A stretch of 64,000 nucleotides of DNA from Candidatus Nanoarchaeia archaeon. Lineage in GTDB: Archaea; Nanobdellota; Nanobdellia; SCGC-AAA011-G17; JACPNG01. The stretch spans positions 7,556 through 71,555 of the forward strand of contig JAQTOC010000003.1 of NCBI GenBank assembly GCA_028713535.1, in the 5' to 3' direction. The position numbers and the translations under genes are program-made. How positions within the stretch are numbered: the stretch's first letter is position 1; the number at the start of each line of letters is the position of its first letter. This document shows, one piece after another, positions 7,580 through 60,768 of the stretch. The notes under the pieces are model-generated. The model did no database searches and had not been told where the DNA came from. It was given only the letters and a program-made list of their open reading frames with translations.

Positions 7580-8401
7580 TTAGTCCAGTGGACTTTTTAT
7601 CTTTTTTATTTGCTCTTGCGAGACATGAGTATAAATTTGTGTGGTGCTTAACTGCGAATGCCCCAGCAGTTCCTGTATCAACCTTATATCTGTCCCGTTC
7701 TCCAGTAAATGTGTAGCAAAGCTGTGCCTAAGCGTGTGGGGTGTAACCCTTTTCTTTATTCCTGCCTTCATGGCAGTGTTCTGGATTATTTTTTGTATGT
7801 TTCTCGTCGTCAAAATATCCCTCCCTTGCCCAGGGAATATCCAAACATTTTCGCTCGGCAGCGTTTGAAGATATCTTTCAAGCTCTTTCAGGACTTTCCC
7901 TCCAACAATTGTCATTCTGTCCTTGCTTCCTTTTCCAGCTTTGACTCTTATTGTTTTTTCCTTGAAATTAATTTCATCGGTTTTTAACCTGACAAGCTCA
8001 GAGACTCGTAACCCCGTGCTGTAAAGCAGCTCGATTATTAATTTGGTTTTTTGGGATTTTGCATTTTTAATCAATAAAAATATTTCATCTCTGCTTAAAA
8101 CTTCCGGGTTTGACTTTGGGATCCTAGGAGTCTTCAAATTAATTATGTTTTTCTTTAAGATTTCATCATAAAAAAACTTCAGTGCACTTTTTTTCAGAGA
8201 AACACTTCTTGGTTTTAGCTTTAAGTCAGATATAATATAGCTCATATAACTTTTAATATCAGATTCAGTCACTTTATCCGGCTCTTTTTTTATATAATCC
8301 AGGAACAGCTTATTGTGCCGCATATAAGAGCTGAGCGTCTCTTTGGAAAAACCCCTTAGCTTTAATTCAACCTCTAGATTTTTTAACAATTTTTCACCCA
8401 A
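7580..8401 (-). CDS. xerA: tyrosine site-specific recombinase, XerA/XerC/XerD family
   Basis: C-terminal catalytic box 'HTLRHSFATHLLENGTDIRLIQELLGHSQLSTTQIYTHV' (R..HxxR..Y), 273 aa, typical of archaeal XerA. Confidence 0.85.
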   Translation of the reverse strand: MGEKLLKNLEVELKLRGFSKETLSSYMRHNKLFLDYIKKEPDKVTESDIKSYMSYIISDLKLKPRSVSLKKSALKFFYDEILKKNIINLKTPRIPKSNPEVLSRDEIFLLIKNAKSQKTKLIIELLYSTGLRVSELVRLKTDEINFKEKTIRVKAGKGSKDRMTIVGGKVLKELERYLQTLPSENVWIFPGQGRDILTTRNIQKIIQNTAMKAGIKKRVTPHTLRHSFATHLLENGTDIRLIQELLGHSQLSTTQIYTHVSQEQIKKIKSPLD

Positions 8402-49529: not shown

Positions 49530-52500
49530 TTATAATTTAATGCTTAACTTTTCAGAATATTCTTTTCCGTCTATTTTTACTTTAATCGAGAATGTGTACC
49601 ATCCGCCTGTTTCAAATCTATCTAAATTAATGACTAACTGATTATTGTTTTTTATTTCAACATCAACCTTAAACATGTTTGCCGTAGCTTCAGCAGACTC
49701 AACATCTGTGTTGAGGTCAATTGTTAATTCCTTTCCATTAGAAGAATATTTTTTAATTAGTTTTTCATTGCATTTAGTATTCTCACAGCCAAACACACAT
49801 TCCTGGCTTGTTTTTAATTCATTGCTTTCGCATTTTATGATGCTTTTTTTATCATCGCTGCATTTAAGTCCTCCTTCCTTTAAGCCACTGCATCCATCTT
49901 CTTTTGCTTCCTCAGTTTTTTCAGCAGCAACCTCGCTTTTTTTCTCAAAGACATCGCCATGATCCCCTTCACTCCTGTAATCTTCTTTTCCTTTTCCAGC
50001 TTCAAGATAAATGAATCCGGTCTGGTAATATATTTCTGCTCTAAGCTCACTGTTCTGAACAGAATCCAATAATGCCTGCAATTCTTTTACGCTTTTTGTG
50101 TTTTTAATCTCGCTTAACTTAGTCTCTTTCTCTTCATCAGTCAGGGCAGTTATTCCCTTGTTCCTTAAATTTTCTACCTTTTTCTCTTCAAGATAGGAAG
50201 ATACATTTTCATAATTGCTAAGTGAGTCAAGACTAAAGCTTCTTGTGTCTAGCCAGCAGTCTCCAAGCGCAATCCCGTTGCTGTCTTTTCCGCAGCTTCC
50301 AGCTCTTCTCCAATAATCGTTCTCAGAATTTCCATCTGGATCATTAACAGAACAAATTCTCCTTATGCTGTCGGTGCTTGATCCAACTCCAGTTATGGTG
50401 TCCAGACTTTCTTCAATCTTTGATTTTTCTTCAGGAACACACTCTTCTTCATTTGTAATTTCTTTTGTTGCTTCTTCAGCAACAGCGTCGTCCTGCAGTT
50501 TATTTAATGCATAATCTGTTGTTACCCTTCCAAATCCGCATTCAGTTACCTCATTTATTTCAATGCACACCTCTTCAAAGCCTTCCCCTGCCACAGTATC
50601 AACATTCTTTGTGACATAGCCTCCATATTCTATCTGGCCTTTTGATTCGCTTGTGCTTCCTTCATCCCCAAATGTAACATAATGCCTTCTTCCAGTGCTG
50701 CTGTCTCTTAAATAGACTCTGTAGCTTAACTGTGTTGGTGCATTTGCTTCCTGTGTTGTTCCTGCATATATGTGGAAGAACACATTGTATTCATTTGCTC
50801 CAAATTTCTCACTGTATGTTTTTGAGCTTAATGTTGCTATGTATTGTGGTGGATCTCTTGGATTTACCAGTTTTGTTATAAACTCTCCAAGATTTGGTAT
50901 TGATCCAGTAACAACACCCTTGCATAACTCCATTTTTATCTGGGTTAATTTTGTTGATTTGTAAGATTGATCTACAATTGTTCCATACTCGCTTGTGAAA
51001 AATTCAACACTTTTCAATGCGGTTTCATAGCTGCTTGAGAAGTCTAGGTATTCTCCCCCGCCATCTGTGCTACTGCTGCTAATCATATTTCCATTGAAGA
51101 AATTGCTGATAAATTGGGTTGCTCCTTCTGCTTCTCTCCAGAAAACATCACAAATGTAGATGCTTTGTATTTTGTCGCATAAACCTACACTCTTTCCGTC
51201 TTCTTTTTGTGTTGTCAAGCAATCTTTTCCTGATTGGAATATAGATCTTATGTTCTTTAACCCAGCTAATATTCCTGTTGCACAAACAGGGAGTATGTCT
51301 CCAGAACCTTGTGGCAATACAATAGATCCGATAATGCCGGATCTTACTACATCCTTGACATACCAGTTGCCGCCTGCATTAAATCTTGAGACAGGGCATA
51401 CGATTGGATCGCATACATTGAATAACATTTTGCAGTCAGAGACACTCATCGAATCTGTGCAGTGGCCTATTGCTTTGTTTAGTTCTTTGTTTGCAGCATT
51501 TGTTTCGCAGTTAAACCATTTTCCGTCTTTGCTTTTTATTCTTTGTCCTTGTGTGCAGGTCTTTAATGAGTTTACATATGTCTGATACTTTAATAATTTG
51601 GAGGGTTCTTTTTCCTTTAGGAAACTGCTGCTCTCTAAACTGATGTCATCACCAGTGCATAATTTTCCGTCAGGGCCAACATTGTATGAACTGATTTCTC
51701 CTGCGCTTCCGTCAGCAAGTTGTTTTGTGACTTTTAAGTATACTCCTTTCTCATAAGGAACGCAGTAGGGTTTTCCGTCAGAGTAGAATTCTGCCGCAGC
51801 ATTCTTGTCATAATCTTTTCTTTCCCCTTTGTTGTCAGTTTCTTTTAGTACTAAATAACAGCCATTACTTGATGTGTATAATGAAGAAGCGCCAACAATC
51901 TTATTTAAATTCCCGCTGACATCCACACGATTAAGATCATTTATTGTTTGTACAGTTTTTCCTTCGTTGTCTACAACAAACCCAACCCCCTTTCCATTTT
52001 CAATTACAACCTCTGATATCGAGCCAGTTATTTCTTCGCATCCAACAGGTTTTTTATCTGTATTTGCCTTCCATTCTGACTGTCTTTTCTTGAAAGTCTC
52101 TGAACTTTGTGATTCAAGGCTGCTGTAAACAGTGTCGAATATTTTCTTTTTGTTCTCGTCGCTCTTTATGTCCTCTCCGAATAGGCTTTTAACCTCTGAA
52201 TATATCTCATTCTTTTTCTGCACGCTTTTTATTAAAGTATCCTTTTGTTTTTTTATTGTTTCAAAATATGCCTTTTCTTTTCCGCTGGTTCCATCTGGTT
52301 TATTATTGAGTATTGAGTTTAAGAAGAGATATTCTTTAACTTCATCGCTGTCAACCGTTAGTTCCTTTCCATTTTCATCAATTTTTGCTTCTTTTGCAAG
52401 ATCGCTATAAGCTTGTGTAGAATAAATGTTCCCATCTTTTAATGCATCATTGAAATCCTCTATTTTCTCATCTACCTCATCAATAATATTCTCTGCAAAC

Positions 52501-55481
52501 GCTCCTGTTTCAGTCAAGCACTTATCGTAGCTTTCATAGTATTTTCCGACCTTGCTTACAGACTCCAGATTTATGTTCATGATGCTGTTAGTCTGACAGA
52601 ACTCTTTTATTCCCATAACATTATCGTAGCCATTCATTACAACACTTCTTGCATCAGCTTTGTTCCCCAGCAAGAAGTTCTTGGCTGTTATGAACATGAA
52701 TGTTGCACCGCAACCAATAGTCCACCCCTTTACTATGTCTTCTGTTTTGTTAATAATTCCATTTAAGCTGTCTATAACAGAGTCAAGATTGTCTATATGG
52801 GTATCTAATTCCTCTGTTGTTAAATTAAATAATTTAATTCCCTTGTCAATTGGTATGTTTACATTGAACTCACTTGTGCTGTACACATTTGCTCTCCCAG
52901 GGATTATGGAAATCTGGGCTGCCTTGATTGCTTTAACTTCTTTAAGCTCAACTTCAATCTCCTTGCCAGAACTGTCCTTAATTTTTTCTTCTTCGTTTAT
53001 TTTTAATGTTTTTGAATCATCAGCTTTTGCTGATGGAAAATGATATCCGTTTTTTAATTGTTCAGAATTTTTGTTGTAGTTGCTGTTTCCAAGGAGGGCG
53101 TTTTCTAGCTGGTTTCTCAATTCAATTATTTTTTCGACATAAGTTTCATCTGCTGCTTGTTTTTCGCCGTCACAGGACATTCCATTGTATAATCTCAGTG
53201 CTCTTTCCCAACCCTTGTAATTTTTCCACGTTTCAATATAACTTGTGCAGTATGTGTTGTCCTTTAATCTGTCAACCATTGAGTTGTAGCTTGTTGCATC
53301 TTTGGTTTTTTCATATTTTAATTTTAGGAACTTAACTCCTGCTTTGATGTTTTCCTCAGCATCAAACCTTATATCCTGTTCCTTTGTTTTTTCAGATTTG
53401 CTTAGCTCAGCCAACTGTTCCAGATATTTTTTGTTATCTATCTTATATGCACAGGTTGATTTTTGTCCTTCAAGCTCCTTGTAGATATTTTCATCTTTTA
53501 TCCCTGCCTCATTTGCTGCCCCAGGCATTAACTGCATCAAACCCACTGCGCCGCAATAACCCTCGTTTGTTTTTGATATTGCTTTTGTATCAAATCCGCT
53601 TTCAATAGCAATCAGTGCTTTTACCAGTAATGGATCAACATCATACTCCTTGGAATATTTTAGGATTAAACTGTCATAATCATTTTTTATTGTTCTCCCG
53701 CCTATTTGTGTTGCACTTATTGCAATATCACTTTCTGTCAAAGCAGTTGGGTTTTTGATGTAATCCCCTGTTGTAATAATGATATTCTTGTCATTTATCT
53801 CAACAACCTTGTAGTCTGTTCCCTTTAATTTGGCTGATATCCCATAACTGTCTACTTGGTTGTCAACACTTACTTTTGCAGAAGCTCCAACCTGTTTTTT
53901 TATTGTTTTTAGCTCGATAATTGCTTCTTCTCCGTCAATATCTATGTTTTCTGAGGATGAGACCGTTGTTCCAATTGCATCCTTGAGATATTCTCCGTAC
54001 ATTGGAAGCAAGGCCGGATTTTTTATGTTTCCTAGCTCATCTAAAATCCTGCTCTTGAAAGAGTTGACATCATCCAATTCATTTGCATTTGTTGCTTTTT
54101 TTATTAAGTCCCTGTAAGCTAAGATAATCTGTTCTGTATATCTGTCCCAATCGTCTGCATTAGATATGACATACTCTCTTGCCCTGTTGAAGTTTGCGAT
54201 GGCTTCGCAATCCAAATCAAATGTTAAATCACTTTCAGGGTCTGGATTGCTTTTTGATCCTGAACATGGATTTACATTGCTGTAAGTTTGTTCATTTTTG
54301 TTTATTATTAAATTAATGGTCTTTTCTTCTTTTTTGTTGGTTAGTTTAACCTCTCCAGATTCATCTTCATCTTTTATTTCTTCAACAAACCAGTCTGTCC
54401 CAGATATGTAATTATTTTCAAATGCTTCAATTATGTTTATCTGATCTTCTTTGTATATCTCAAAAATTGCGCTTTTGCCCAACGAGTTAAGTATGCTGTC
54501 AAGCCTAACTCTTATCGTATCTGTTGCAGAGCTGCTGAACAATGAACTAAGTCCGCCCAAAGACATTGCAGATGTAGTCTCGCCAACCTTTAATGTTTGG
54601 AGTCCGCCAACAGAAGTTAATGTATTGTCATAAACCTGGATTGTTGCAGAATCATCCTCTATATTGTCTAGTCTTACATAATAAGCTCCATCTAAGAAAG
54701 AATCTTGGTAAGTTGAATCAATTCCTTCTGCAAAAGAAGTTGCTCCCTGATCTGTTCGTCTGCTTAATTTTTCTGTTAACGAAGTCCAGATATTTCGCAG
54801 CCCCTCAGTAACTGTTCTGGATTCCCTTGACGCATCTCCCGCGAACTCATCTTTGCTCTTCTGGTATATCAATTTTGTTAGTTGTCCATAGTTTAAGGTT
54901 CTGGCAGTACTAAACTCAATCCTTGCACTCAGGTTTAAGTCTATATTCTCTGGGATTTGATCTTCACTGCTGAATTTATTTAGCTCAATAATAACAATCC
55001 CAAGATTGTCTAAATCATTGTATTCCATTGTGCCAAGTGCACTTTTGATAGGAGACAATTGATCTAGATAAAAACTGGTTGGGGGGTAATAATCAATGCT
55101 TTTTATGTATGGATTGTATGATAGTGGGGTTATTATAATGTTATTTATTGTAGGAACTCCGATTGTGGGTTCGCCTGTGGAAATCTGTTCCCCCAGGAAA
55201 CTCCCGAGAGTGTTTCCACTAAGGTAAACAAACACAGGAACATTTCCTTTTGTTAATAAATTGCTGCTTAATACATTTGGTTCATAATCAGTAGGATAAA
55301 CATTTATTGCCTCTCCTAAATTATCATAGTAGCTTAATCCGCTTCTTATCGTGTCTGTGGAAGCATATCTTGAAATTGTCTGGCTGCTTCTTGAGCTTGG
55401 CTGGGTTCTTGTTGTGGCAGCAAATGATACATTGCTAAGTAAGAAAATTACTATCAATGTTATTGCAATAATCTTTTTCAT
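49530..55481 (-). CDS. giant secreted protein (1983 aa) with internal GH23/SLT lytic-transglycosylase-like domain and Cys-rich C-terminal region
   Basis: Sec signal 'SNVSFA|ATT'; SLT motifs 'ALIAIESGFD...GAVGLMQLMPGAA'; >40 Cys in C-terminal half; start overlaps upstream gene's stop (ATGA). Confidence 0.85.
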   Translation of the reverse strand: MKKIIAITLIVIFLLSNVSFAATTRTQPSSRSSQTISRYASTDTIRSGLSYYDNLGEAINVYPTDYEPNVLSSNLLTKGNVPVFVYLSGNTLGSFLGEQISTGEPTIGVPTINNIIITPLSYNPYIKSIDYYPPTSFYLDQLSPIKSALGTMEYNDLDNLGIVIIELNKFSSEDQIPENIDLNLSARIEFSTARTLNYGQLTKLIYQKSKDEFAGDASRESRTVTEGLRNIWTSLTEKLSRRTDQGATSFAEGIDSTYQDSFLDGAYYVRLDNIEDDSATIQVYDNTLTSVGGLQTLKVGETTSAMSLGGLSSLFSSSATDTIRVRLDSILNSLGKSAIFEIYKEDQINIIEAFENNYISGTDWFVEEIKDEDESGEVKLTNKKEEKTINLIINKNEQTYSNVNPCSGSKSNPDPESDLTFDLDCEAIANFNRAREYVISNADDWDRYTEQIILAYRDLIKKATNANELDDVNSFKSRILDELGNIKNPALLPMYGEYLKDAIGTTVSSSENIDIDGEEAIIELKTIKKQVGASAKVSVDNQVDSYGISAKLKGTDYKVVEINDKNIIITTGDYIKNPTALTESDIAISATQIGGRTIKNDYDSLILKYSKEYDVDPLLVKALIAIESGFDTKAISKTNEGYCGAVGLMQLMPGAANEAGIKDENIYKELEGQKSTCAYKIDNKKYLEQLAELSKSEKTKEQDIRFDAEENIKAGVKFLKLKYEKTKDATSYNSMVDRLKDNTYCTSYIETWKNYKGWERALRLYNGMSCDGEKQAADETYVEKIIELRNQLENALLGNSNYNKNSEQLKNGYHFPSAKADDSKTLKINEEEKIKDSSGKEIEVELKEVKAIKAAQISIIPGRANVYSTSEFNVNIPIDKGIKLFNLTTEELDTHIDNLDSVIDSLNGIINKTEDIVKGWTIGCGATFMFITAKNFLLGNKADARSVVMNGYDNVMGIKEFCQTNSIMNINLESVSKVGKYYESYDKCLTETGAFAENIIDEVDEKIEDFNDALKDGNIYSTQAYSDLAKEAKIDENGKELTVDSDEVKEYLFLNSILNNKPDGTSGKEKAYFETIKKQKDTLIKSVQKKNEIYSEVKSLFGEDIKSDENKKKIFDTVYSSLESQSSETFKKRQSEWKANTDKKPVGCEEITGSISEVVIENGKGVGFVVDNEGKTVQTINDLNRVDVSGNLNKIVGASSLYTSSNGCYLVLKETDNKGERKDYDKNAAAEFYSDGKPYCVPYEKGVYLKVTKQLADGSAGEISSYNVGPDGKLCTGDDISLESSSFLKEKEPSKLLKYQTYVNSLKTCTQGQRIKSKDGKWFNCETNAANKELNKAIGHCTDSMSVSDCKMLFNVCDPIVCPVSRFNAGGNWYVKDVVRSGIIGSIVLPQGSGDILPVCATGILAGLKNIRSIFQSGKDCLTTQKEDGKSVGLCDKIQSIYICDVFWREAEGATQFISNFFNGNMISSSSTDGGGEYLDFSSSYETALKSVEFFTSEYGTIVDQSYKSTKLTQIKMELCKGVVTGSIPNLGEFITKLVNPRDPPQYIATLSSKTYSEKFGANEYNVFFHIYAGTTQEANAPTQLSYRVYLRDSSTGRRHYVTFGDEGSTSESKGQIEYGGYVTKNVDTVAGEGFEEVCIEINEVTECGFGRVTTDYALNKLQDDAVAEEATKEITNEEECVPEEKSKIEESLDTITGVGSSTDSIRRICSVNDPDGNSENDYWRRAGSCGKDSNGIALGDCWLDTRSFSLDSLSNYENVSSYLEEKKVENLRNKGITALTDEEKETKLSEIKNTKSVKELQALLDSVQNSELRAEIYYQTGFIYLEAGKGKEDYRSEGDHGDVFEKKSEVAAEKTEEAKEDGCSGLKEGGLKCSDDKKSIIKCESNELKTSQECVFGCENTKCNEKLIKKYSSNGKELTIDLNTDVESAEATANMFKVDVEIKNNNQLVINLDRFETGGWYTFSIKVKIDGKEYSEKLSIKL

Positions 55482-57403
55482 GTTAGTTTTGGATATTCAA
55501 AAAATATATTTTCTGGATATCTTGAAAGTTCATCTGCAAATGCTGCAGGGTCTTCATATATTGTGTCTGAGTTGTCATAAACCGCGTAGAATATTATTTT
55601 GCTTGAACTCTTTAATTCATCCCTGTTTATGCTAAAGCTGAAATCTCCTCCGCCAATAAGATTTTGTTTAAAGCTCTGTTCAGGTATTGTATTCTCTATG
55701 CATTCGCTCTTTGTCTTCCCAAGCAAACCCAAGATCCCATCAGGGATATCAACACATTTTGTGAATTTTCTTTCTGGCATTGTGATTGTTTTCCCTTCTT
55801 CAGACATAACATAAGAGTTTATGCTGTATTCTCCAGGAATTATTTTGATTTTTCCTGTTGGATTGCTTAGGACTGTGTTGTAATTATCACTTTTAATCTC
55901 AAACATAACCTGTTCATCCTCTACCTCTCGTGTTGCTCCTGTATTCTTGTTGATTAATTGTACCTCATAATCTAGGTAGTAATAAGGTTCTAGATAGACT
56001 GTGATTTCATTTTCCCTTGTTGTTGAGAGTATCTGGCTTCCTACTCCAAGGTCCTTGTTCTCTGCGACAATCTCCCCATTGACGCAGCTTGGGAAATAAC
56101 TTGTCATTGTTCCGTCGCTTTCCCCGATGTAGCAGTTGCTTACACCGCAGTTATAAGACACCTGCGCAGGAATTTCTTCAAACGTTTCAATGTCTAGTGT
56201 TCTCACATTGACTTCCTTGTTCCTTGAGTTGCATATTGTGTCCTTGAAGTTTGAAACATTCAAGTTTGTTATTGTGTCCACTCTTGGCTGGTTTTTTTCT
56301 ATAACAACCATCGTGGCAAATTGGAATATATCTCCATCAGCCATCAATGTAACTAAAACCGGATATTTTATATCATACGCAAAGTTGTAATTATTTATGC
56401 AGACCATTCCGGATAGAATTTGATTTATTTCACTCCCACCAGCAGCAGAGCCCTTTGCAATTAATAAGTCTCCTTCCCTTGGCTGGACCTCAATTTCAAA
56501 TGGCCAGGTTTCTAAGTACCTTAAATTTACATTAATATCATATTGTTTCTTTAAAGCAGACCACTCGAAATATTTTTCTGTATTTTCATAATTTGTTCCC
56601 TTTATCTTTATGTTTGGGATGTTTAGTTCTATTATTTTTTTAAGTTTAGTAATTATATCATCTACAAACCATGTTTTTACCCCGCAATTAAACTCAGTTC
56701 CAGAATACGGGATATCCTCATATACAGTTAGCATATCAATTGTTTTTTCCTCAAGATAATATTCTTTGCTTTCATCATCAAAAATTTGCCTTGCTACCTT
56801 GTATAATTCTCCAAGGTTTGAATTTACAGAAGTACTGAACTCATCCAGCTTGTATTCGTTGTCCCCTTTCTTTATGGTAACTGGCATGTCCAAACCAACA
56901 CCTATTTTCTTGTCCTGGATGGTTATGTCCACTCTTTTCTCTCCAGTATGGATAGCATACCCTTGGAAATCTGTGAAATTACTAAGACACAATTCCAATG
57001 CGCTTTCAATGAATAATTTTAAGTCGGATTCCATATCAGTTATTGCAGGATAGTTTGTTTTATCAACATTGTTTGCTTTTTTGTAGTACCAATATGGAAC
57101 TTTTGCGTTTCCTGTGGTTAATGCATTTGAAAATTTATTGAAGTCAGAGGCAGGGATGCTATCTTCTTCAACAACAAGGTAACCACCCTGCAAACCAATA
57201 ATCCTCGACCCAATTAGTGTTGTTCTTGCAAGACAGCCCTCTATGTTGCTTCTTACCGCCTCGACTTCTTCACCACCTTTTTCCCCAGAAATAATCTCTG
57301 TACCCTTTTCTAGGATAGAATCCCTGAAAACAAGGAATATAGCAACAAGTACTACCAATATAATACCGATGATGACAAACAGTGAAACCTGGCCTCTTTT
57401 CAT
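55478..57403 (-). CDS. large surface protein (641 aa) with archaeal class III (prepilin-like) signal peptide
   Basis: N-terminus 'MKRG|QVSLFVIIGIILVVLVAIFLVF' fits [KR]G/A-Q + hydrophobic prepilin-peptidase substrate pattern; remainder beta-rich with Cys pairs. Confidence 0.7.
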   Translation of the reverse strand: MKRGQVSLFVIIGIILVVLVAIFLVFRDSILEKGTEIISGEKGGEEVEAVRSNIEGCLARTTLIGSRIIGLQGGYLVVEEDSIPASDFNKFSNALTTGNAKVPYWYYKKANNVDKTNYPAITDMESDLKLFIESALELCLSNFTDFQGYAIHTGEKRVDITIQDKKIGVGLDMPVTIKKGDNEYKLDEFSTSVNSNLGELYKVARQIFDDESKEYYLEEKTIDMLTVYEDIPYSGTEFNCGVKTWFVDDIITKLKKIIELNIPNIKIKGTNYENTEKYFEWSALKKQYDINVNLRYLETWPFEIEVQPREGDLLIAKGSAAGGSEINQILSGMVCINNYNFAYDIKYPVLVTLMADGDIFQFATMVVIEKNQPRVDTITNLNVSNFKDTICNSRNKEVNVRTLDIETFEEIPAQVSYNCGVSNCYIGESDGTMTSYFPSCVNGEIVAENKDLGVGSQILSTTRENEITVYLEPYYYLDYEVQLINKNTGATREVEDEQVMFEIKSDNYNTVLSNPTGKIKIIPGEYSINSYVMSEEGKTITMPERKFTKCVDIPDGILGLLGKTKSECIENTIPEQSFKQNLIGGGDFSFSINRDELKSSSKIIFYAVYDNSDTIYEDPAAFADELSRYPENIFFEYPKLT

Positions 57404-57723: not shown

Positions 57724-57819
57724 ATGGGCCCGGGGCGAATCGAACGCCCGACCTCCTCCACGTCAAGGAGACGTCATACCTTTGCCCGTTCTTTTTTGGA
57801 GAACTCTAGACCACGGGCC
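57724..57819 (-). tRNA. tRNA-Val (anticodon GAC) with ~23-nt intron in the D-loop region
   Basis: Minus-strand fold: acceptor gggcccg/cgggccc (A73), anticodon arm tctcc-TTGACGT-ggagg, var aggtc, T-arm gggcg-ttcgatt-cgccc; 96 nt = 73-nt mature + 23 nt (ttctccaaaaaagaacgggcaaa) inserted after 'gtctagag'. Confidence 0.7.
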
Positions 57820-57830
57820 CCTTTAAAAAA

Positions 57831-57902
57831 GAGCCCCAGGAGGGACTTGAACCCCCGACCCCCTGATTACAAGTCAGGTGCTCTACCACTGAGCTACTGG
57901 GG
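57831..57902 (-). tRNA. tRNA-Thr (anticodon UGU)
   Basis: Minus-strand: acceptor gccccag/ctggggc, D gctc/gagc, anticodon arm cctga-CTTGTAA-tcagg, T-arm ggggg-ttcaagt-ccctc. Confidence 0.85.
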
Positions 57903-58016
57903 CATAGAGATAACTCATCCTAAGCTTTTTAAAAACATTTCTATTAATACAAATATATACTTAGGATGGAAAAGAGAAGGAATTTCCCTCTCTTATAACT
58001 TGCTTTTGGTTATATA

Positions 58017-58379
58017 TTATATTATTACTGTGGGTGGAGGTTTATCTTCTTCTTTAATGATACTCCTTTCGCTTGTTTCATCTTTTATTGTTTTTTGCAT
58101 ATCCTCCGGTAGGTCTAAAAGAACCTTCTCTAGTTCGCTGGGCGATAGACTACATATGAGTTTGTAGGCGTTGGCTGTATGTATACTTGTTTCAGTGGAT
58201 GGGACTGCGGGGTGTGGTTTGTCTTCTAGATTCATCAGTTTATCTATAGGCACTGATTTTGTTTGAAAAGCCAATCTAGCTATACCTCTGCTGGCAATTA
58301 TCGCACAGACTGCATCTTTAATTGATACAATCTGAGAAGGATCTTCACCGAAATCTTCTGTTTCTTTTTTAGCTGACAA
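58017..58379 (-). CDS. hypothetical protein (120 aa)
   Basis: Intact minus-strand ORF; the overlapping plus-strand ORF 57715..58167 is antisense to two tRNAs and rejected. Confidence 0.4.
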   Translation of the reverse strand: MSAKKETEDFGEDPSQIVSIKDAVCAIIASRGIARLAFQTKSVPIDKLMNLEDKPHPAVPSTETSIHTANAYKLICSLSPSELEKVLLDLPEDMQKTIKDETSERSIIKEEDKPPPTVII

Positions 58380-58520
58380 TTGACCCCCTTCCTTCTTCCG
58401 GTTTTTCCGAAAGATTTCAGAAATTTGCTATGACTATAACTACCAAAAGCTTAAGTTATTTTTGAGAAATTTCCCTTCTCTTTAAATGAAACAGAAAAAT
58501 TATGTAGCACAAATTCCTAT

Positions 58521-60290
58521 TTAAATCTTAGCTTTTAAGACTTCGGCCCCTCTTTTAGTAATCCTAAGCTCTTTTTTCCAGCCCTTGTCATGTTTAATAA
58601 CTTCTGTGGCGATTAAACCAAGATCCTCTAATTTTTTCTTTATGGCATTTCCCCTTCTTACGCTAATTTTAAATAACTCATAAATCTTTGAAATATTAAA
58701 TCCTTCATTCTTAGCTATAAAATCTAAGAACTTTTTTTCTTCATTGTCAAGCTTAAACTCAGGTTTTTTGATTTTAACTTGTTCTTCTAAAAATTCTTTT
58801 GGGGCTGCAACTCCAGAAGCTTTGAAGATATCATCCATTTTTTCTTTTTCTTCATTGACTTCTTTTTCAACTCTCTCTTCAACATAGCCCTTTTCAACCT
58901 CGTCTTGAATTACTTTTTGCCCCATCTTTACTCTTAAATCTTCATCTGTTACAACCTCCTCCTTAAGGCGTACTAAAGGAGTTTTTATCATAAAAGGAGT
59001 TGTATGTCTCTCAGATAATTTTACAAGGGCTTCACCTACCTGCAGCATTGAGAAGTAATCTTTGTGCTCTCTTAGCTGCATGATTCCTGATACTTGTTCA
59101 AGATCATCTGGCAAAACCTGCTGGAAAGCTACATTGCATGCGCTGTTTCCTGCCACAACGTCACTTAACTTAGATATGTGCTGGTCTAAGCAGATTAATC
59201 CAACCCCATACTCCCTGATCTCTCTGTAAACAACCTCTGTTGCGCCTTCTTTTATGAAATTAGGCTTGTCCTTTAAGAATATGTTATGTGCCTCGTCGAT
59301 TATTATTGCCTGGGTGAATTCCCCTCTTGTGGCATTTTCGTTTGTTTTTTTGTATTTGTACAAATAACTTAAGATAAATTCACAGAAGAATTTTTTCTGT
59401 GAGCTGTTTAATGAATGCAATTCAAATAATAACTTATCTCCAAAATAATCTTCAACTTTTACGCTGTCTTTTCCTTTATAGCCTATAACGTCCCCAAAGT
59501 CTCCAAAAGTTAATGCATGTGCTATTCTTAATGCAGAAATCAGCCATTCACTCTCTCTGTTTCTTATCTTCATTTCTTCTTCCTTGATTTCTAATCTGTC
59601 TTTAATCTGATGCCAGGTAGGATAATTTTCAGAACCTTCATACACCCCAAATTCTCTAAATGATTCATCCAAGGTTTCAACAATTATTTTATGTACTCCA
59701 TAGCTTGCAAAGAAACTCTCTGTAACCATATCTGCTAACAGGCTGATCCATTCTTTAGGAGGAACTCCTTGAGGCGGCCTGTTGATGTTTATCTTGAAGT
59801 TATTGTTTATCTTGGAGTTGCCTATCGTGTAAACTTTTATTTGGTTGTCAACTAAAACCAAAGACCTAAAACTTTTTTTCCAGTCAAATATCCAGAAGGG
59901 CTTGTTATTTTTTATTAAGTTTCCAATAATTACAAAAGCAAAATTTGTTTTTCCAGATCCGCTCATCCCGCTGATGCATACGTGTCTTGGCCAGTCTTTG
60001 TCTCTTAACCCAAAAGGATAATAGTCTTTTTCAGCATAAGTTATTACCCCCAATGGATAATCTCCGCCTATTATTTCTTTTTTTGGAGGCTCAAGAAGTA
60101 TTTTCTGGCTCAGCATGCTCTGATTTAAATGTTTGTGATACAAAGCACTTATTGCCTGTTCAATTTCAAATTTCTCGTCCCCTCTTTCTGCTAATCTGTA
60201 TCTTAGATAAAGGGCATCAATCTTTTTACCAAAGACAGGCCTTAGTTTCCTGCATAGTTCTTCTATAGTTAATTCTTTATCAAATGCCAT
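58521..60290 (-). CDS. HerA/FtsK/VirB4-superfamily (DUF87-like) ATPase with C-terminal winged-helix domain
   Basis: Walker A 'ISGMSGSGKTNFA', Walker B 'AIIIDEAHNIF', 589 aa, acidic linker then wHTH-like 'FLDFIAKNEGFNISKIYELFKISVRRGNAIKKKLEDLGLI'. Confidence 0.75.
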   Translation of the reverse strand: MAFDKELTIEELCRKLRPVFGKKIDALYLRYRLAERGDEKFEIEQAISALYHKHLNQSMLSQKILLEPPKKEIIGGDYPLGVITYAEKDYYPFGLRDKDWPRHVCISGMSGSGKTNFAFVIIGNLIKNNKPFWIFDWKKSFRSLVLVDNQIKVYTIGNSKINNNFKININRPPQGVPPKEWISLLADMVTESFFASYGVHKIIVETLDESFREFGVYEGSENYPTWHQIKDRLEIKEEEMKIRNRESEWLISALRIAHALTFGDFGDVIGYKGKDSVKVEDYFGDKLLFELHSLNSSQKKFFCEFILSYLYKYKKTNENATRGEFTQAIIIDEAHNIFLKDKPNFIKEGATEVVYREIREYGVGLICLDQHISKLSDVVAGNSACNVAFQQVLPDDLEQVSGIMQLREHKDYFSMLQVGEALVKLSERHTTPFMIKTPLVRLKEEVVTDEDLRVKMGQKVIQDEVEKGYVEERVEKEVNEEKEKMDDIFKASGVAAPKEFLEEQVKIKKPEFKLDNEEKKFLDFIAKNEGFNISKIYELFKISVRRGNAIKKKLEDLGLIATEVIKHDKGWKKELRITKRGAEVLKAKI

Positions 60291-60291
60291 C

Positions 60292-60768
60292 TTAGTCTAG
60301 AATCTTGTCCAGCATGTTTGCTTCACTCTGTTTTTCCCTTAATTCCTTGCTCCACTCTCTTAATTCTTTTTTAAGCAAGGCAATGTCTCTCCAGCATTCA
60401 AGTTTTTCTTTAACCTTCATCTCTTCCAGTTCTGCTTTTTTCTTGAGTAAGTTTAGCCTCTCGCTTGAAGCGTTAGGATCCATTGTAGATACGCTTATGG
60501 TCATTGTATTAATCTGGCTTACAATTTTATCAATGTCATTCATAAGTTCCTTTGTTAGTTTTTTTCTTTCTTCAATAAGCTCGGCAATCTCTCTTTGGCT
60601 TTCTATCAATGAGTTGATATCTTTCTTTTGTATGTCCTTAAGAATTTCGTCTCCGCCAATAACCTGGTCTTCAAAGGCCGCACTATAGTCTTTTAACTTT
60701 GGCCTTTCCTTCTTATGTTCCATCTCTAGGTCAGACAGGAACCCTTCTAAAATATCTTTTTTTGCCAT
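60292..60768 (-). CDS. coiled-coil protein (158 aa), translationally adjacent to the ATPase
   Basis: Heptad-rich E/K sequence; stop 1 nt from ATPase start codon. Confidence 0.5.
   Translation of the reverse strand: MAKKDILEGFLSDLEMEHKKERPKLKDYSAAFEDQVIGGDEILKDIQKKDINSLIESQREIAELIEERKKLTKELMNDIDKIVSQINTMTISVSTMDPNASSERLNLLKKKAELEEMKVKEKLECWRDIALLKKELREWSKELREKQSEANMLDKILD

Follow-up and report, generated by a model that had tools for sequence, protein, structure and literature searches.

The window analysed here, that is the whole 64,000-nucleotide (nt) stretch of DNA, is chromosomal and comes from a metagenome-assembled genome (MAG) of Candidatus Nanoarchaeia, a Woesearchaeota-like member of the DPANN archaea. 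On its minus strand it carries a pair of adjacent genes, one for a 589-amino-acid (aa) ATPase and one for a small helical-hairpin partner, and the pair appears to have branched off, as a chromosomal form without a nuclease, from a module of mobile elements. The ATPase is currently annotated as 'DUF87 domain-containing' (it is 100% identical to the NCBI entry 'DUF87 domain-containing protein [Candidatus Nanoarchaeia archaeon]') and the partner as 'hypothetical'. Taken as a whole, we read the pair as a domesticated, nuclease-less translocase of double-stranded DNA that has a winged helix-turn-helix (wHTH) loader, a hairpin adaptor and a housekeeping role; this reading is tentative, and we give it a probability of about 0.45. 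The domain anatomy and the evolutionary placement of the pair are well supported, while we infer hexamer formation, the DNA substrate, the contact between the partner and the N-terminal domain of the ATPase, and the cellular role. In the literature, no description of this DPANN ATPase family or of its hairpin partner was found.

Both open reading frames (ORFs) of the pair are present (Table 1), and the Walker A (GMSGSGKT) and Walker B (IIIDEAH) motifs that an initial annotation of this DNA had named in the ATPase were located in the sequence. The Pfam DUF87/HerA central domain was matched at E=7e-10, above its gathering score, and HerA_C was also matched; the DUF87/HerA-type assignment and the placement in the HerA/VirB4-like superfamily made by that annotation both hold. 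The features of the FtsK-HerA superfamily (P-loop, Walker A and B, arginine finger, glutamine sensor and a fold match) are all found in the ATPase, which is assigned to the HerA/VirB4/DptH branch. Its catalytic residues are invariant: besides Walker A and B, these are R356/R359, which precede strand 4, and Q370, which closes it; the arrangement of R356/R359 and Q370 fits the HerA/FtsK signature.

An AlphaFold2 (AF2) model of the ATPase (mean predicted local distance difference test, pLDDT, 77.7) divides the protein into a three-helix N-terminal domain (N-domain), a RecA-like core, an acidic linker and a C-terminal MarR-type wHTH; the winged helix proposed by the initial annotation is thus seen in the model. 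The N-domain occupies the place of HerA's HAS-barrel, carries the motif KLKPxxG and is kept by both family tiers described below. The wHTH has a conserved recognition helix (SxRxGN) and wing (KGWKK). No transmembrane (TM) segment was detected in the ATPase (maximum 19-aa hydropathy 1.16). The length of the linker varies between homologues, and some have an extra inserted domain there. As a separate observation, the long ATPase forms of 630-810 aa (P0005, P0007, P0016, P0105 and P0117) have an extra small domain between core and wHTH (alignment A1 columns ~600-670) with the pattern GYxxxDIxxAL; by eye it resembles a UBA-like three-helix domain, and Pfam returned no match for it.

With regard to known families, the CedD profile was the best curated match in all 21 family members tested (E down to 4e-20), and the CedB profile matched 2 of the 21. 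The relation to Ced systems that had been proposed stands insofar as CedD is the closest curated profile, but the window ATPase scored only 65 bits against a CedD cut-off of 600, and the match was limited to the ATPase domain. Other profiles were more distant: HerA_Thermprot gave 31 bits against a cut-off of 800, helicase_HerA matched 8 of the 21 members at E>=1.5e-4, the TraC-F-type profile gave 16 bits against a cut-off of 567, and VirB4_CagE matched 5 of the 21 (best E=4e-4). Neither an FtsK_SpoIIIE profile match nor an FtsK-type motor (alpha/beta domains) was found in the ATPase, and HerA was its sole significant sequence match in the PDB. By their defining tests, the ATPase is not a VirB4, a CedB or CedD, a repair HerA or an FtsK.

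The partner is modelled by AF2 as an antiparallel helical hairpin (helices at aa 38-92 and 100-157, pLDDT >90) preceded by a disordered N-terminus, with a mean pLDDT of 82 overall. No TM segment was found in it, which indicates a soluble protein. Its C-terminal helix carries the conserved motif EKLxCWRDIALLKKELRE, and R68, K110, E121, W126, D128, L132, K133, E135 and R137 are invariant; the most conserved segment, WRDIALLKKELRE, is retained in both tiers. No curated family in Pfam or NCBIfam was matched. A fold search for the identity of the hairpin returned nothing at E<=1e-3, and its top matches (Vipp1/PspA, FliJ/YscO, EsxAB) were generic helical hairpins.

The pair is widespread and its two genes travel together. 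Relatives of the ATPase were detected in at least 174 species (a lower bound, obtained by scanning one genome per GTDB species with exact peptides), and the best 80 were all from Woese-, Pace- or Nanoarchaeota-type MAGs. When every window protein of the region was compared by tblastn with 86 related loci, 82 of them had the partner upstream of the ATPase in the same orientation, usually less than 50 bp away. Among the other four loci, one had a partner according to clustering, two were ended by a contig edge and one had a divergent 222-aa protein. The coiled-coil protein that had been noted beside the ATPase is therefore its genuine partner. De novo clustering of all neighbours at ~82 loci gave a similarly narrow picture, in that the commonest neighbour family after ATPase and partner occurred in only 11 loci. 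The neighbours that do recur are housekeeping genes, namely a THUMP methyltransferase, L10e, L35Ae, S9/L13/L18e, aIF5B and DRG.

The initial annotation had joined the ATPase to the genes downstream of it, a pilin-like protein (641 aa) and a giant protein with an SLT lytic-transglycosylase domain, as a type IV secretion system (T4SS)-like or Ced-like apparatus. This proposal fails because the neighbourhood is not conserved: the SLT giant, the 641-aa protein and a 63-aa wHTH protein are found close to the ATPase in no more than 2 of ~80 species, which are the relatives with 84% and 80% identity. Such a lack of conservation of the gene neighbourhood in relatives was the outcome that the annotation had itself named in advance as speaking against it. 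No CedA-, VirB6- or VirB2-type protein was found among the neighbours, and ten downstream polytopic proteins had no match to VirB, Trb or Ced families (CedA, CedA1, VirB6, VirB2, Trb). One downstream protein had a weak TcpD-family match (18.8 bits), below the cut-off. No membrane-protein family is conserved beside the pair in the ~80 neighbourhoods, and NurA, Mre11 and Rad50 are likewise absent from them; NurA was also not found in the window flanks, in agreement with the original remark that none lies nearby. It is well supported that the ATPase pair is independent of the neighbouring SLT/pilin operon. Our analysis thereby takes away a tempting but unsupported T4SS annotation; the original observation is confirmed, and its interpretation is partly supported.

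The pair is under strong constraint. Among divergent members, mean pairwise identity was 65% in the core (minimum 58%), 55% in the N-domain, 38% in the wHTH and 23% in the linker. In the two closest relatives, the ATPase (84% and 80% identity, respectively) is more conserved than the neighbouring ribosomal proteins S15 (79% and 76%) and S3Ae (63% and 61%), while RecJ/GAN is at 73% and 65% and the hairpin partner at 71% and 67%. The 641-aa protein (61% and 47%) and the SLT giant (59% and 37%) evolve fast and are absent from all loci but these two. In a distance-based neighbour-joining tree of the ATPase core, built without curated outgroups, the Nanoarchaeia ATPases (tier 1) formed one monophyletic clade of 84 tips, within which each of four housekeeping-synteny groups was an exclusive or near-exclusive clade; the extra tips were short contigs without flanks. 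Since the ATPase tree agrees with the chromosomal synteny groups, it indicates that the Nanoarchaeia pair has been inherited vertically at stable chromosomal sites.

Direct origins in viruses or plasmids were considered separately and rejected. IMG/VR had no relatives of the ATPase, a phage collection gave one remote match, and a BFVD fold search returned generic HerA/FtsK ATPases only. PLSDB matches were DUF87 proteins at only 20-31% identity, 7 of 9 of which cover 57-65% of the query.

A profile search over 1.84 billion cluster representatives (490 clusters at E<=1e-30) placed the pair in a wider family. Identity to the window core was bimodal, with tier 1 (Nanoarchaeia) at 52-100% and its sister group, tier 2, at 27-38%. 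Tier-2 proteins are 640-710 aa long and share the N-domain, core and wHTH, to which they add, at the C-terminus, a further domain in which His, Glu, Asp and ExE residues are invariant. This domain matches PD-(D/E)XK nucleases weakly but consistently (AF1548 at E=0.0045; Cas4, Hjc, AHJR-like restriction endonuclease (REase), Mrr). A further 80 metagenomic tier-2 loci (L093-L172) were examined, on contigs of 29-72% GC, and the REase-like domain was present in 72 of 72 full-length tier-2 proteins. The hairpin partner lies directly upstream here too, in 48 of 63 testable loci when a hidden Markov model (HMM) of Nanoarchaeia partners only was used, and in 60 of 79 by clustering; in 5 of 6 separately tested tier-2 loci, the Nanoarchaeia partner HMM detected the upstream partner at E values from 1e-7 to 7e-14.

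Tier 2 occurs in other bacteria and archaea, and its surroundings are those of mobile or defence modules, such as integrative elements and conflict islands. Of 79 loci, 22-23 carry an Orc1/Cdc6-like gene beside the ATPase, at a median distance of 168 bp, and 22-24 carry a nearby tyrosine integrase, at a median of 731 bp; among the 30 loci that span 12 kb or more, 16 have the integrase. Individual contexts include IS21, a serine recombinase/resolvase, AbiE, a Cas4/Dna2-like nuclease, RadC, DUF2958, ThiF, a DISARM-like context and SNF2/PLD, and one cluster was attributed to a Candidatus Brocadiia bacterium. The nuclease itself can be exchanged: P0238 (996 aa) has a C-terminal DHH/DHHA1 (RecJ-like) domain instead of the REase, and at locus L087 a Cas4/Dna2-like PD-(D/E)XK gene is inserted between partner and ATPase. 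PMC10853773 describes mobile neighbourhoods of HerA/FtsK, wHTH, REase and Orc/Cdc6, which are read there as counter-invader or immunity systems ('HerA/FtsK capture systems', Aravind lab), and on that description the tier-2 loci correspond to them. In tier-1 loci, by comparison, no REase domain (window protein included), no Cdc6-like neighbour and no adjacent integrase was found; the sole exception in tier-1 flanks is a XerA-like gene ~4 kb upstream in one lineage. The analysis thus defines a widespread, uncharacterised two-gene module (hairpin plus ATPase-wHTH-nuclease) as a mobile-element or defence candidate for experiment. Separately, one tier-2 locus (L090) carries two partner-ATPase pairs within 8 kb, by ThiF, a Cdc6-like gene, an AbiE toxin-antitoxin and an integrase.

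HerA, VirB4, TrwB and FtsK work as hexameric rings that move nucleic acid through a pore, and such a pump is loaded or oriented on double-stranded DNA by tethered winged helices: the gamma domain in FtsK/SpoIIIE, the wHTH in Streptomyces TraB. By analogy, the window ATPase would form a hexameric ring around double-stranded DNA, as HerA, VirB4 and FtsK do, and its six tethered wHTH domains may capture the ring on the DNA or orient it there. ATP hydrolysis would then drive DNA pumping. The hairpin partner would dock on the N-domain, as an adaptor or a regulator, because its top-conserved segment and the N-domain are both kept in the two tiers. Because the nuclease was lost, the Nanoarchaeia version would act on the cell's own chromosome, for example in the segregation, clearance or unlinking of DNA. 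If so, a mobile-element or conflict ATPase would have been domesticated for an archaeal housekeeping DNA transaction. DPANN archaea have tiny genomes, and the pair is kept at 60-85% identity across the class, above the neighbouring ribosomal proteins, so it likely does something central. A more specific version, which we regard as doubtful, is that Nanoarchaeia took over the pump of an integrative mobile or conflict element, without its nuclease, and made it a fixed part of their core machinery, either as the missing archaeal counterpart of FtsK in directed chromosome clearance or segregation (to our knowledge, archaea lack FtsK) or as a cytoplasmic motor that pulls DNA across the zone of contact with a host, together with fast-evolving envelope proteins encoded downstream.

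Several points weigh against a domesticated housekeeping translocase. The 'housekeeping' part is drawn from conservation and vertical inheritance only. The closest kin of the pair belong to mobile or conflict modules, and structurally the ATPase is best matched by DptH, a restriction-system ATPase, so the pair may serve in conflict. The wHTH could bind protein instead of DNA, or could autoregulate transcription. At ~17 tier-1 loci, from one to seven small ORFs, soluble and unrelated, separate partner and ATPase (examples in Table 1); Pfam found no domain in these inserted ORFs, with no recognisable nuclease or effector, and only the inserted pair at locus L060 gave a faint RIO/APH kinase-like signal. 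Lastly, the downstream flank is hypervariable, a pattern seen more often beside defence or mobile loci than beside core genes.

The two flanks are strongly asymmetric. Within 5 kb, ORFs of shared families (present at three or more loci) accounted for 46% upstream versus 13% downstream (n=29, Wilcoxon p=4e-5). ORFs for TM or secreted proteins were more frequent downstream (42% versus 25% upstream, p=0.024), although this enrichment is modest and heterogeneous, and the naive ORF calling used for the flanks inflates hydrophobic ORFs in AT-rich DNA. At many loci there are co-directional downstream arrays of genes for small proteins with 1-5 TM segments or a signal peptide, none of them conserved (Table 1), and several tier-1 loci have no membrane-protein gene downstream at all. 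The window fits this envelope theme with its prepilin-like 641-aa protein, whose N-terminus is the class-III signal peptide MKRGQVSLFVIIGIILVV, and its secreted SLT giant. It is possible that the pair may have an envelope link of some kind, because the downstream DNA is moderately enriched in genes for small membrane or secreted proteins; if the pump works with these variable genes, it would bear on DNA exchange between symbiont and host. An account of the variable flank as a tRNA attachment site was rejected, as tRNA genes were not enriched there (6 of 61 loci versus ~8% expected). Together, the inserted ORFs and the flank asymmetry keep three other explanations alive, namely conflict, a Ced/T4SS-like motor and a decayed element.

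An unlikely but credible one is that the pair serves in conflict or defence, as a counter-invader ring pump that intercepts or expels foreign DNA and whose effector acts in trans, for example through the variable small ORFs. The REase-bearing sister group in its integrase, Cdc6-like, AbiE and DISARM-like contexts would suit such a role, as would the immunity reading given to HerA/FtsK-wHTH-REase neighbourhoods in PMC10853773, the ORFs inserted between partner and ATPase and the hypervariable downstream flank. PADLOC also returned mad8, DndH (36 bits) and HerA, but these matches are weak and all of the generic ATPase-domain kind, and they do not place the pair in a known defence family. A defence gene would, moreover, sit uneasily with conservation above that of neighbouring ribosomal proteins, with a stable chromosomal position and a gene tree congruent with synteny, with the loss of the nuclease, and with inserted ORFs that carry no recognisable effector domain.

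It is improbable that the ATPase is a soluble motor of the Ced/T4SS type, recruited to a channel made of fast-evolving downstream membrane proteins and moving DNA to or from hosts or neighbours. In its favour, CedD is the best curated profile in all 21 members tested (with CedB matched in two), TM-less orthologues of CedD/VirB4 are known (PMC11823120), and downstream ORFs are enriched in TM or secreted proteins, with arrays of 2-5-TM proteins at many loci; the prepilin-like protein and SLT giant downstream in the window and the one weak TcpD-family match point the same way. The CedD score, however, is far below its cut-off and comes from the ATPase domain alone; the N-terminal domain is not of VirB4 or CedD type, and the C-terminal wHTH is foreign to VirB4, CedB and CedD. 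Nor does the genomic evidence favour it: no membrane-protein family is conserved beside the pair, CedA, CedA1, VirB6 and VirB2 were not matched, the SLT and pilin genes adjoin the pair in two species only, and the TM enrichment is subject to the reservation on ORF calling made above.

Decidedly improbable, in our estimate, is a decayed or domesticated integrated element, of which the pair would be the remnant core and the downstream DNA the cargo or an insertion hot spot, with the ATPase partitioning, packaging or transferring element DNA. The ties of the sister group to integrase and Cdc6-like replication-initiator genes are consistent with this, and so are the strong flank asymmetry, the tRNA genes directly downstream in the window and the situation at L003/L032, where ~20 small ORFs of no known family run downstream and a Bro-N gene lies upstream. 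Against it, tier-1 flanks have no Cdc6-like gene, REase or adjacent integrase, tRNA genes are not enriched downstream, IMG/VR has no relatives, and the ATPase tree follows chromosomal synteny. A HerA-type helicase for end resection at double-strand breaks, with an unlinked nuclease, is very improbable because the N-domain is helical, without a HAS-barrel, and because none of NurA, Mre11 and Rad50 is linked to the pair in ~80 neighbourhoods, to which the HerA_Thermprot score far below cut-off and the un-HerA-like wHTH and hairpin partner can be added, despite the Pfam DUF87 and HerA_C matches, the sole significant PDB match to HerA, the nucleases fused or adjacent in tier-2 relatives (REase; DHH/DHHA1 in P0238; Cas4/Dna2-like in L087) and a RecJ/GAN gene 1.3 kb upstream in the window, whose adjacency is limited to 2-3 species.

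With regard to the layout of the locus, the initial annotation had treated the minus-strand genes as one series. The gap between the partner stop and the ATPase ATG is 1 nt, and the hairpin and ATPase genes are predicted to be one bicistronic unit with its own putative promoter. After the ATPase stop come an oligo-T run, two tRNA genes and then an AT-rich region upstream of the 63-aa wHTH gene. Given its own promoter-like element, the oligo-T run, the two tRNAs and the separate AT-rich upstream region, the ATPase pair is predicted to form a transcription unit separate from that of the wHTH/641-aa/SLT genes, and the series resolves into two parts. The tRNA-Thr and tRNA-Val genes named earlier are both real, although the latter is called only after intron removal: tRNA-Val(GAC) has a non-canonically placed intron of ~20-26 nt in its D-loop region and was overlooked by ARAGORN in default mode and by Rfam, and ARAGORN calls it once the insert is removed. 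The 120-aa ORF, in contrast to its earlier listing among the genes, is probably not a gene, because no homologue of it was found in any related locus; even the 84%-identical genome has an unrelated 105-aa ORF in its place. Upstream of the pair, the S15-RecJ/GAN-S3Ae-ferredoxin block is confined to the two closest species.

Table 1. Coordinates of features at the ATPase locus, elsewhere in the window and, in the last four rows, at related loci (numbered within each locus).
Feature	Position	Strand	Basis or remark
BRE/TATA-like promoter element (B recognition element and TATA box) AAAGGTTTATATATAA	60800..60822	-	~40 nt 5' of partner ATG; sequence reading, candidate by archaeal consensus
Partner gene, 158 aa	60292..60768	-	ORF and AF2
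ATPase gene, 589 aa, HerA/VirB4/DptH-class	58521..60290	-	ORF, profiles, AF2
N-terminal three-helix domain, aa 9-58	60117..60266	-	AF2: H9-20, H22-33, H37-58
ATPase core, RecA-like, aa 66-440	58971..60095	-	Helical-bundle insert between Walker A and B
Walker A, aa 108-115	59946-59969	-	Sequence
Walker B, aa 329-335	59286-59306	-	Sequence
Arg-finger region YREIREYG	59205-59228	-	Within core
Sensor CLDQHISK	59169-59192	-	Within core
Acidic helical linker, aa 449-491	58818..58946	-	23% identity, net charge -6
MarR-type wHTH, aa 516-586	58533..58745	-	Net charge +8; MarR/F-93-like
Oligo-T run ATTTTTCTGTTTC, candidate archaeal terminator	58488..58500	-	~20 nt after ATPase stop; sequence inference
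120-aa ORF, TTG start	58017..58379	-	Between ATPase and tRNAs; probably not a gene
tRNA-Thr(TGT)	57831..57903	-	Confirmed
tRNA-Val(GAC), intron-bearing	57725..57820	-	ARAGORN after insert removal
641-aa prepilin-like protein	55478..57403	-	Class-III signal peptide
1983-aa SLT giant	49530..55481	-	Sec-type signal peptide; SLT domain at aa 605-662
AAA+ protein, 258 aa	35456-36232	-	Resembles Orc1/Cdc6/RFC (E=2e-12)
XerA-like tyrosine recombinase	7580-8401	-	E=2e-69 to Xer query
ORFs inserted between partner and ATPase	L065 6945-9981; L067 2109-4545; L049 7290-9987; L072 8110-9992; L060 8528-9998		Tier 1
Downstream TM/signal-peptide arrays	L016 7629-14478; L051 12069-15853; L084 11428-16832; L069 12430-17719		Examples; L051: five tandem paralogues
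Cas4/Dna2-like PD-(D/E)XK gene	L087 9231-10004		Between partner and ATPase
Two tier-2 partner + ATPase pairs	L090 1-1470, 7583-10043		

Elsewhere the window codes for housekeeping proteins such as LonB, ArgRS, a further aminoacyl-tRNA synthetase and phosphoglucomutase. Cumulative GC skew drops steadily over positions 1-64000 and reverses only briefly, and all genes at 49.5-64 kb are on the minus strand, which suggests that the window sits within one replichore, without an origin or terminus. Further from the ATPase pair, we note the XerA-like tyrosine recombinase at a distance of 50 kb and the AAA+ protein at 23 kb.

When compared with known systems, the pair shares parts with several and coincides with none of the four families tested. 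In VirB4, a large N-terminal domain precedes the ATPase domain, whereas the model of the window ATPase has only ~65 aa there, in three helices; VirB4 is also linked to the membrane components VirB2, VirB3 and VirB6, and often to a VirB1 SLT protein, and the window pair has no such conserved linkage. CedB and CedD have a VirB4-NTD-like domain and, in many members, an N-terminal TM helix, in place of which the window ATPase has a ~50-aa helical bundle and no TM segment. TM-less CedD/VirB4 orthologues do exist (PMC11823120). CedB and CedD co-occur with CedA/CedA1, and no CedA-like neighbour was found at the window pair; the C-terminal wHTH and the hairpin partner are features of the window pair that VirB4, CedB and CedD lack. 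HerA differs in its HAS-barrel and its operon link to NurA (often also to Mre11/Rad50), against a helical N-domain and no such linkage nearby in the window, where the wHTH and hairpin partner are again not HerA features.

FtsK, SpoIIIE and Streptomyces TraB appear to share a design logic with the window ATPase, namely a superfamily ring ATPase with a C-terminal winged helix on a linker. The C-terminal winged helix of FtsK recognises DNA; the wHTH of the window ATPase is basic and MarR/F-93-like. FtsK is anchored by its membrane segment to the septum, whereas TM segments are absent from both the window ATPase and its partner. DndH, encoded in a DndFGH operon, has eight domains over ~1700 aa, and none of the other DndH domains or DndFGH partners is present at the window pair, despite the likeness to DptH.

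The closest likeness is to the tier-2 systems of the type described in PMC10853773. In the passages of that paper drawn on here, the hairpin partner is not named as part of these systems. The window pair and tier 2 have in common the helical N-domain, the helical-bundle insert in the core, the wHTH that follows the core and the upstream hairpin partner. The window clade differs in that it is without the PD-(D/E)XK domain and without an Orc1/Cdc6-like or integrase neighbour, and in that it is tight, vertically inherited and set among housekeeping genes.

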